Shown here one piece after another: positions 16,676 to 17,572 of a stretch of 64,000 nt of DNA. This stretch comes from Eledone cirrhosa (taxonomy: Eukaryota). Below the pieces are notes generated by a model, which saw only the letters and a program-made list of their open reading frames with translations, was not told where the DNA came from and did not search any database. Made by a program: the position numbers and the translations under genes. The stretch covers positions 343,914,001 through 343,978,000 of the forward strand of contig OZ024741.1 of NCBI GenBank assembly GCA_964016885.1, given 5' to 3'. Each line of letters begins with the position of its first letter. Within the stretch, counting starts at the first letter, position 1.

Positions 16676-17572
16676 TTGAAAAAAATGAAAACGAAATTTC
16701 ATTTCTCACTCTTAGTATGGCACTTACTTAAATGTAAGTATGTATGTATACGTACATACATATATGTATACAGACGTACAGTAGCATGCATATATATATA
16801 TATATATATATATATATATATATATATATATATATATATATATATATATATATATATATATATATATATATATATATATATATATATATATATATACACA
16901 TATGCATACAGGTACACATACATATATGCACGCATCAGTTTAGCCGACGTTTATCATAACGCCGGCCGCTTTGTTCGTTTGTTTGTCAACAAAGCGAACG
17001 GCCTGAATTTATGCCATACGGTGTTAAGGCAATTTAAGTAAGTGCCATACTAGGAGTGAGAAATGAAATTTAAGTAAGTGCCATACTAAGAGTGAGAAAT
17101 GAAATTTCGTTTTCATTTTTTTCAACTTATCGTTTTCGGTATGCCTGACCGATTTAACTCACTCAATATGCAAATTAGGCTGCTCAGCCGTTAATTTTCA
17201 TAAGGAAAGTATATACTTTCGAACGTTCAACTATCTGGCAGATGGGTAAACGGTGCTGATGATAGCTAACAAGCTTGAAACTAGTACATCGTTCCTGTGT
17301 CAGTGTTGAACAAAAAGGTGACGTGGTTGCCTTAACATCGTATGGCATAAATTCAGGCTGTTCGCTTTGTTGACAAACAAACGAACAAAGCGGCCGGCGT
17401 TATAATAAACGTCGGCTAAACTGATGCGTGCATATATGTATGTGTACCTGTATGCATACGTGTATATATATATATATATATATATATATATATATATATA
17501 TATATATATATATGCATGCTACTGTACGTCTGTATACATATATGTATGTACGTATACATACATACTTACATA
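16676..17572. mobile_element. Dispersed inverted pair of the 466-bp HHR family
   Basis: 16676-17031 is in array orientation; 17032-17572 is inverted, with octamer, TATA palindrome, HHR and AATAAA (17404). Confidence 0.9.
17249..17293 (+). ncRNA. Canonical minimal type I HHR
   Basis: aacggtg-CTGATGA-t agct aaca agct t-GAAA-C TA G-TA-catcgtt. Confidence 0.92.

Follow-up and report, generated by a model that had tools for sequence, protein, structure and literature searches.

Tandem repeats with type I hammerhead ribozymes are expressed as circular RNA in animals, and Penelope-like elements have been proposed as their mobilisers by Cervera and de la Pena 2020 (PMC7229834). Vertebrate retrozymes derive from pLTRs according to Li et al. 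(bioRxiv 10.64898/2026.07.22.740005). As far as the available text of these two sources goes, neither contains a map of insertion ends; the ends reported here are fixed, paired and internal to the cut monomer. Penelope insertions are described as inverted 5'-truncated copies with (TA)n targets and a 30-40-bp tail often at one end (PMC8557442), the tail being found on one of the inverted pLTRs (PMC3846280). In an in vitro study, reverse transcription had two internal starts that correspond to the tail, cutting and extension took place on both strands, and the enzyme was predicted to be a dimer; for the anole enzyme, the start site showed no strand difference in a pooled read-out and unprocessed RNA was used (PMC11167929). 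How the tandem, inverted and tailed Penelope insertions are made is treated as an open question in section 15 of PMC8557442. A literature search with sparse coverage of subscription journals found no paper mapping retrozyme insertion ends, with Penelope twin priming, octopus hammerhead repeats and the newt satellite promoter included in the search.

The window, i.e. the whole 64,000-nt stretch analysed here, is AT-microsatellite-rich animal DNA from an assembly of 3.0 Gb. It holds a non-coding repeat unit of 466-486 nt (~470 bases), each with a hammerhead-ribozyme motif, that occurs in thousands of genomic copies: a 34-nt hammerhead core gave 10,587 exact matches genome-wide and its reversed control none. 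The repeat is a retrozyme-type element of the non-LTR kind that integrates with a Penelope signature, and the testable retrozyme features are all found, although the element class itself is already known. Like metazoan non-LTR retrozymes, it is a non-coding tandem repeat in which every unit bears a single type I hammerhead (one motif per 466-nt period); it has a GC content of 36% (0.36 for the unit) and thousands of copies, and shares its genome with Penelope-like elements. It also resembles the axolotl motifs in its weak stem III and in a stem II with U-U at its base. In contrast to metazoan non-LTR retrozymes, the unit is slightly longer than the 150-450 bp first described and no homologous pLTR was found. 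Retrozymes are expressed as circular RNA, and the unit may be as well.

EN+ Penelope-like elements offer the second comparison, with partial tandems, an inverted 5'-truncated copy, a tail at one end, a (TA)n target, internal starts of reverse transcription downstream of the hammerhead cut and joins by microhomology, all of which recur here. Unlike them, the unit has no ORF: its longest ATG frame (112 aa) runs through simple repeat and is not a meaningful reading frame, and an open frame for reverse transcriptase (RT) and GIY-YIG, as expected of an autonomous Penelope-like element, is absent from it. In L1 twin priming, a single RNA is primed from each of the two target strands, and microhomology joins the resulting cDNAs head to head. 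The repeat would share this double priming and the head-to-head microhomology join, but differs in its fixed internal starts, its lack of poly(A) and its arms that overlap in sequence.

Two head-to-head insertions and their ribozyme

Positions within the unit are given on a circle, where 1 is the first base past the predicted hammerhead cut and the reference is a natural 486-nt unit. Two sites recur throughout: J, the point where the tandem array terminates, at circle ~269 (ends binned 254-278), and T at circle ~330 (ends binned 310-332), with a spacing of 60 nt. The two copies in the window, A and B, are made up as follows.

16651..16670, no strand: left (TA)n target of copy A, read from the sequence
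16671..17032, minus strand: inverted arm of copy A, circle 41 to 330, without hammerhead, outer end at T
16671..16732, minus strand: tail of copy A between J (269) and T (330), with two predicted stem-loops
16790..16896, no strand: (TA)n block inside the unit, present in expanded form in the inverted arm of copy A
17032..17067, plus strand: extra piece of 36 nt, circle 268-303, at the head-to-head junction of copy A
17068..17571, plus strand: sense arm of copy A, circle 268 to 486 and 1 to 269, exactly one unit, crossing the ribozyme cut, outer end at J
17168..17175, plus strand: octamer ATGCAAAT, conserved in the sister family, putative promoter role
17249..17293, plus strand: minimal type I hammerhead with 7-bp stem I, CUGAUGA at 17256, GAAA and a palindromic stem III; predicted cut after 17286
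17572..17594, no strand: right (TA)n target of copy A, read from the sequence
about 46446..46653, minus strand: inverted arm of copy B, circle ~90 to the equivalent of T (330), laid out as in copy A
46650..47080, plus strand: sense arm of copy B, circle ~275 to 269, outer end at J

Positions 16671-17571 are thus a head-to-head insertion of the hammerhead repeat. A preliminary description had the inverted arm of copy A running through the (TA)n block and across the unit junction, and copy B as a diverged copy of the same layout. This was largely correct: the junction crossed is J, and the copies differ by 13% (44 of 334 non-TA bases) with unlike flanks, in whose (TA)n runs a target-site duplication is not readable. 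The 36-nt piece between the arms of copy A had gone unmentioned; it is likely a template slippage, in which the enzyme would have slipped back via a short ATTT match after one full turn. Both copies were also said to invert at nearly the same place, which is true of the sense arms (268 and ~275), while the inverted arms stop ~50 nt apart (41 and ~90). Likeness of this degree was also found for 21 of 595 pairs of other insertions. With nine of 128 inner ends near J and 5 expected, the agreement of the sense-arm starts comes from chance or from weak pausing at this site. A and B arose as separate insertions, so the head-to-head structure itself was rebuilt each time and not inherited. Accordingly, the claim that the arrangement predates the divergence of the copies applies to the mechanism, given the same geometry in a sister family, and not to the structure.

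The hammerhead of the unit further shows a short stem II, a GUA triplet and the U-U pair at the stem II base. Its core is intact and self-cleavage is predicted from sequence, while the core of copy B is mutated and was missed by the motif scan. Against Rfam HH9 the unit scored 18.5 bits (E 0.26) and the sister family 31.8, with a cut-off of 52, and the whole window had no Rfam match at the gathering score; Rfam miRNA matches were rejected as hairpin artefacts. Between unit and sister family, three pairs of stem I and two of stem II have changed on both sides, i.e. they covary; the row of L053, which had wrong coordinates, was left out of this comparison. Further hammerhead motifs of at least four more families were seen in the window at 45691, 46288 and 38213 (minus strand) and at 45929, 47413 and 47781 (plus strand), several of them within palindromic insertions.

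Upstream of the ribozyme, each unit carries the octamer together with TAATTTTCATA and GATGGGTAAA, and all three motifs are common to both families. They are possibly an internal promoter of the snRNA type, by analogy with newt satellite 2, which has such a promoter. No RNA dataset with the repeat unit was listed among the public runs, which is uninformative on expression.

Fixed outer ends and scattered inner ends

Three samples, all on a single contig (C1), were mapped on the circle: 53 loci holding the first 100 of the 10,587 core matches, thus chosen by hammerhead core (sample 1), 40 loci chosen by a J-end pattern (sample 2) and 20 by a T-end pattern (sample 3). In this map most outer ends (3' ends of the RNA) lie at J or T and the inner ends all round the unit. 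In sample 1, 87 of 100 outer ends fell at J (41) or T (46), although the two bins make up 10% of the circle, and 83 of these 87 adjoin (TA)n; eight others lie in the internal TA block and five elsewhere. J and T are 60 and 120 nt beyond this block. Genome-wide, one exact J-end pattern was matched 2,153 times and one exact T-end pattern, which belongs to a single subfamily, was matched 389 times; a pattern for copies that stop at the ribozyme cut next to (TA)n had no match. Free circular permutation, as initially proposed, is hence not what these ends display, and "circularly permuted" should be replaced by two fixed outer ends with random inner ends. The contrary view of fixed linear termini, with junction-spanning copies as mere terminal redundancy, is half right: the 3' termini are fixed, but redundancy alone does not explain arms of up to 11-15 units.

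The sharper point of the finding is a strict rule of one site per strand. All 65 inverted insertions with both outer ends resolved (25, 31 and 9 in samples 1, 2 and 3) have one J and one T end, with pair classes read by eye and samples 2 and 3, being end-picked, testing the partner end only. For the 25 pairs of sample 1, which were not end-picked, P = 3e-8 if site choice were independent. In two further insertions the partner arm, though of the expected type, is ~10 nt long, and 13 solo arms occurred in the end-picked samples. Outside the pair count are 17 inverted or complex cases that are truncated, interrupted or run off, and one locus (L110) is among those not counted as J/T. A single small J-J palindrome with mirrored flanks (L151) looks like a later rearrangement. 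The overrun of J in copies A and B is the known Penelope "tail", here with a fixed length of 60 nt, compared with 70 nt in the sister family, about 80-87 nt in the local autonomous element and 30-40 in published Penelope-like elements. One tail per insertion is strict here (65/65), while the papers on EN+ Penelope-like elements say "often" or "optionally". Two hairpins are predicted in this region, the first with J in its loop and the second directly before T, and they may be a binding signal.

Inner ends, in contrast, are scattered over the whole circle (70 ends; Rayleigh p about 0.16). The largest cluster among 128 ends had P = 0.02-0.06, with weak clusters also away from J, and a hot spot at J (9 of 128 versus 5 expected, P = 0.07) was not accepted; one locus (L104) was excluded from these counts and another (L106) from arm lengths. 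Junctions without inserted bases had microhomology of at least 2 nt in 30 of 48 cases, versus 18% for random joins, and 16 further junctions contained inserted bases. Some joints involve other sequences. At L038:4357-4400 and at window 15704-15750 the end of a short unrelated repeat meets a unit arm head to head, possibly as a chimera of two RNAs, and at L065:3504-4095 ~590 nt of a 55-nt tandem repeat lie between a J arm and a T arm.

Related families and the autonomous element

Three more insertions or arms related to the unit lie in the window.

15862..16503, no strand: insertion of the sister family, 466-nt unit, one J and one T end
19508..22166, minus strand: tandem arm of 5.7 units of 466 nt, which meets (TA)n with its outer end, at J, and has its inner end in a palindrome at circle 405
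22151..22365, plus strand: fold-back arm of the 5.7-unit array, outer end lost in an N gap

In the array at 19508-22166, variants alternate with a period of two, pointing to a later two-unit duplication. The sister family is homologous to the unit (alignment score 279 versus a shuffled maximum of 134), has 1,630 core matches in the genome and shares tail, octamer and ribozyme with it. All of its 20 resolved pairs had one J and one T end, with a tail of 70 nt, and seven other insertions were not classed.

The genome also contains an intact autonomous element, a young family with many open copies (L131-L146) of a 745-aa frame, whose hammerhead lies ~190 nt upstream of the start codon. Searches of Pfam and PDB with the 745-aa protein gave no match; its Atlas neighbours carry GIY-YIG, RVT_1 and HTH_animal, and the nearest clusters are cnidarian and ctenophore. 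This element ends +57 or +136/144 past its own hammerhead, one of each per insertion, in 24 pairs read by eye with two loci (L045 and L142) left aside. A search for an autonomous element whose pLTR is homologous to the unit found none among 16 copies of one family and with one degenerate pattern for a third family, whose 14 matches are apparently point mutants. At L047:4281 and L087:1068 the unit runs straight into Penelope-like coding sequence, as a template switch during a single insertion would produce; the element fused at L086/L087 was rejected as donor, its own pLTR having no homology to the unit.

Other repeats in the window comprise inverted pLTR fragments related to the autonomous element at 47131-47508, with ends +133 and +47 past its hammerhead, and a SINE-like repeat of 198-208 nt in tandem copies at 50469-52275. 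Broken frames at 2502-3912, 9482-10932 and 31212-32796 resemble, by their putative motifs, Penelope-like RT and GIY-YIG proteins.

Template and mechanism of insertion

In both A and B the inverted arm fits into a single cut monomer and never crosses the cut, so that its crossing of J is uninformative on multimers. The earlier proposal of multimeric or circular templates is supported, then, by other evidence than the inverted arm cited for it, which fits one cut monomer. The sense arms of A and B do cross the ribozyme cut site. That all 26 insertions cross the cut was dropped as evidence, the loci having been picked by ribozyme core, and the J-picked sample was used instead: among its arms (39 of 40), 20 reach within 10 nt of the cut, of which 19 pass and one stops there. 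The template is therefore not a linear monomer trimmed by the ribozyme. Moreover, 14 of the 39 arms are longer than one unit, and the longest have 11-15 units. Neither arm is contained in the other in seven of 26 insertions, A and B included, and each arm was therefore primed separately.

Our preferred reading, to which we give fairly good chances, is head-to-head insertion with ends 60 nt apart by a Penelope-like RT/GIY-YIG enzyme that acts in trans on an uncut, probably circular RNA. Arrays would be transcribed, the hammerhead would cut as a dimer, and monomers would be ligated into circles. An enzyme dimer would cut both strands of a (TA)n target, and reverse transcription would start from J at one DNA end and from T at the other, each RT rolling round the template until it drops off. 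The two cDNA ends would then join via microhomology, and later tandem duplication would lengthen some arms. Points that weigh against this reading are the lack of a homologous pLTR in the search above, the sub-threshold Rfam score and U-U pair of the hammerhead, the equal start sites on both strands in vitro, the J-J palindrome of L151 and the 17 unclassed cases. A more specific version, in which the Penelope RT dimer is asymmetric, with one fixed start per cut DNA end on one circular RNA and both subunits rolling, is tentative and falls somewhat short of an even chance.

Whether the uncut RNA is a circle has to be weighed against the same enzyme and start sites acting on a linear, uncleaved read-through transcript of an array, with arrays growing by tandem duplication. 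Such a template accounts equally well for fixed ends and read-through. In the in vitro system unprocessed RNA was the main substrate (PMC11167929), and eight of nine Xenopus dimers were without cleavage (bioRxiv 10.64898/2026.07.22.740005). Higher-order periods inside arms also speak for it: several shared variants recur along an arm with a period of 2-4, which shows that growth of arrays continues once they are inserted and that long arrays need no circle. However, median differences were 0.3% between opposite arms, 0.6% between units in one arm and 3.4% between separate insertions, and young arrays are uniform over both arms with fixed differences between arrays, as after a one-unit bottleneck. 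In 14 insertions with at least four unit pieces, 11 family-rare variants were fixed in every unit, eight of them across both arms, where such "private" variants were judged among 59 insertions, a small sample for the purpose, and might instead be the mark of a minor subfamily whose donor arrays are uniform; the other differences were 150 singletons and 35 variants common to at least two units (22 in one old array). Likewise, a sister array (L215) has six identical units over two arms, and sister arrays differ by fixed differences. Variants fixed arm-wide fit a one-unit bottleneck per insertion, i.e. a monomer circle, and those common to both arms favour, without proof, a single lineage of template, and a circle of one unit rather than linear multimers. 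Nor is there a single run-off point among the 128 inner ends. We thus consider the linear transcript rather unlikely and a monomer circle the probable template.

A single priming, with the second arm as a fold-back copy of the first cDNA or by self-priming on an antisense template, would account for the variants common to both arms as well. A self-priming model of this kind has been proposed for Penelope palindromes (PMC3846280). One arm is contained in the other in 19 of 26 insertions, and the array in the window and L037 turn at a perfect palindrome. But in the other seven, A and B included, neither arm could have templated the other, and the longer arm can be either one. These non-nested cases rule out fold-back as a general rule, which makes it a very improbable explanation of the insertions, and it could apply to a minority of them. 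Spread at the DNA level, by rolling circle of the Helitron/Helentron type or by recombination between (TA)n runs, with the hammerhead as a passenger, would suit the eight of 100 outer ends in the internal TA block. Helitron/Helentron-type elements also have tandem arrays, an internal microsatellite and hairpins, a likeness that counts in its favour; they have characteristic termini and a Rep-helicase partner as well. Against it stand the distances of 60 and 120 nt from the TA block to the ends, the recurrence of the two-end rule in an RT-coding element of this genome and the covariation of hammerhead stems between two families. The end pattern points to Penelope rather than to Helitron/Helentron-type elements, and DNA-level spread is scarcely credible. 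Lastly, palindromes in repeats are hard to assemble and no listed contig spans the junction of copy A, but inversions produced by read fold-backs would hardly give arms with sequence differences (4 of 140 bases in copy A and 7 of 116 in copy B) and with a fixed end site of their own, and contigs from public runs, possibly of the assembled sample, hold other joints of left and right arms. Assembly artefact is almost certainly the wrong explanation.

Insertion by a Penelope-like enzyme on an uncut, probably circular RNA thus remains the reading that we favour. Until now, the identity of the enzyme that moves animal retrozymes was a hypothesis from co-occurrence and pLTR homology. Here, a non-coding retrozyme-type repeat, its sister family and an intact autonomous element have one integration signature in one genome. 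The rule of one start site per DNA end is a direct prediction for the existing in vitro system. If the asymmetric dimer is true, the insertions would be a genome-wide record of animal retrozyme circles as the real template of transposition. An RNA of 470 nt with array-wise insertion into (TA)n would also offer a minimal template with which the Penelope route could be studied or put to use.
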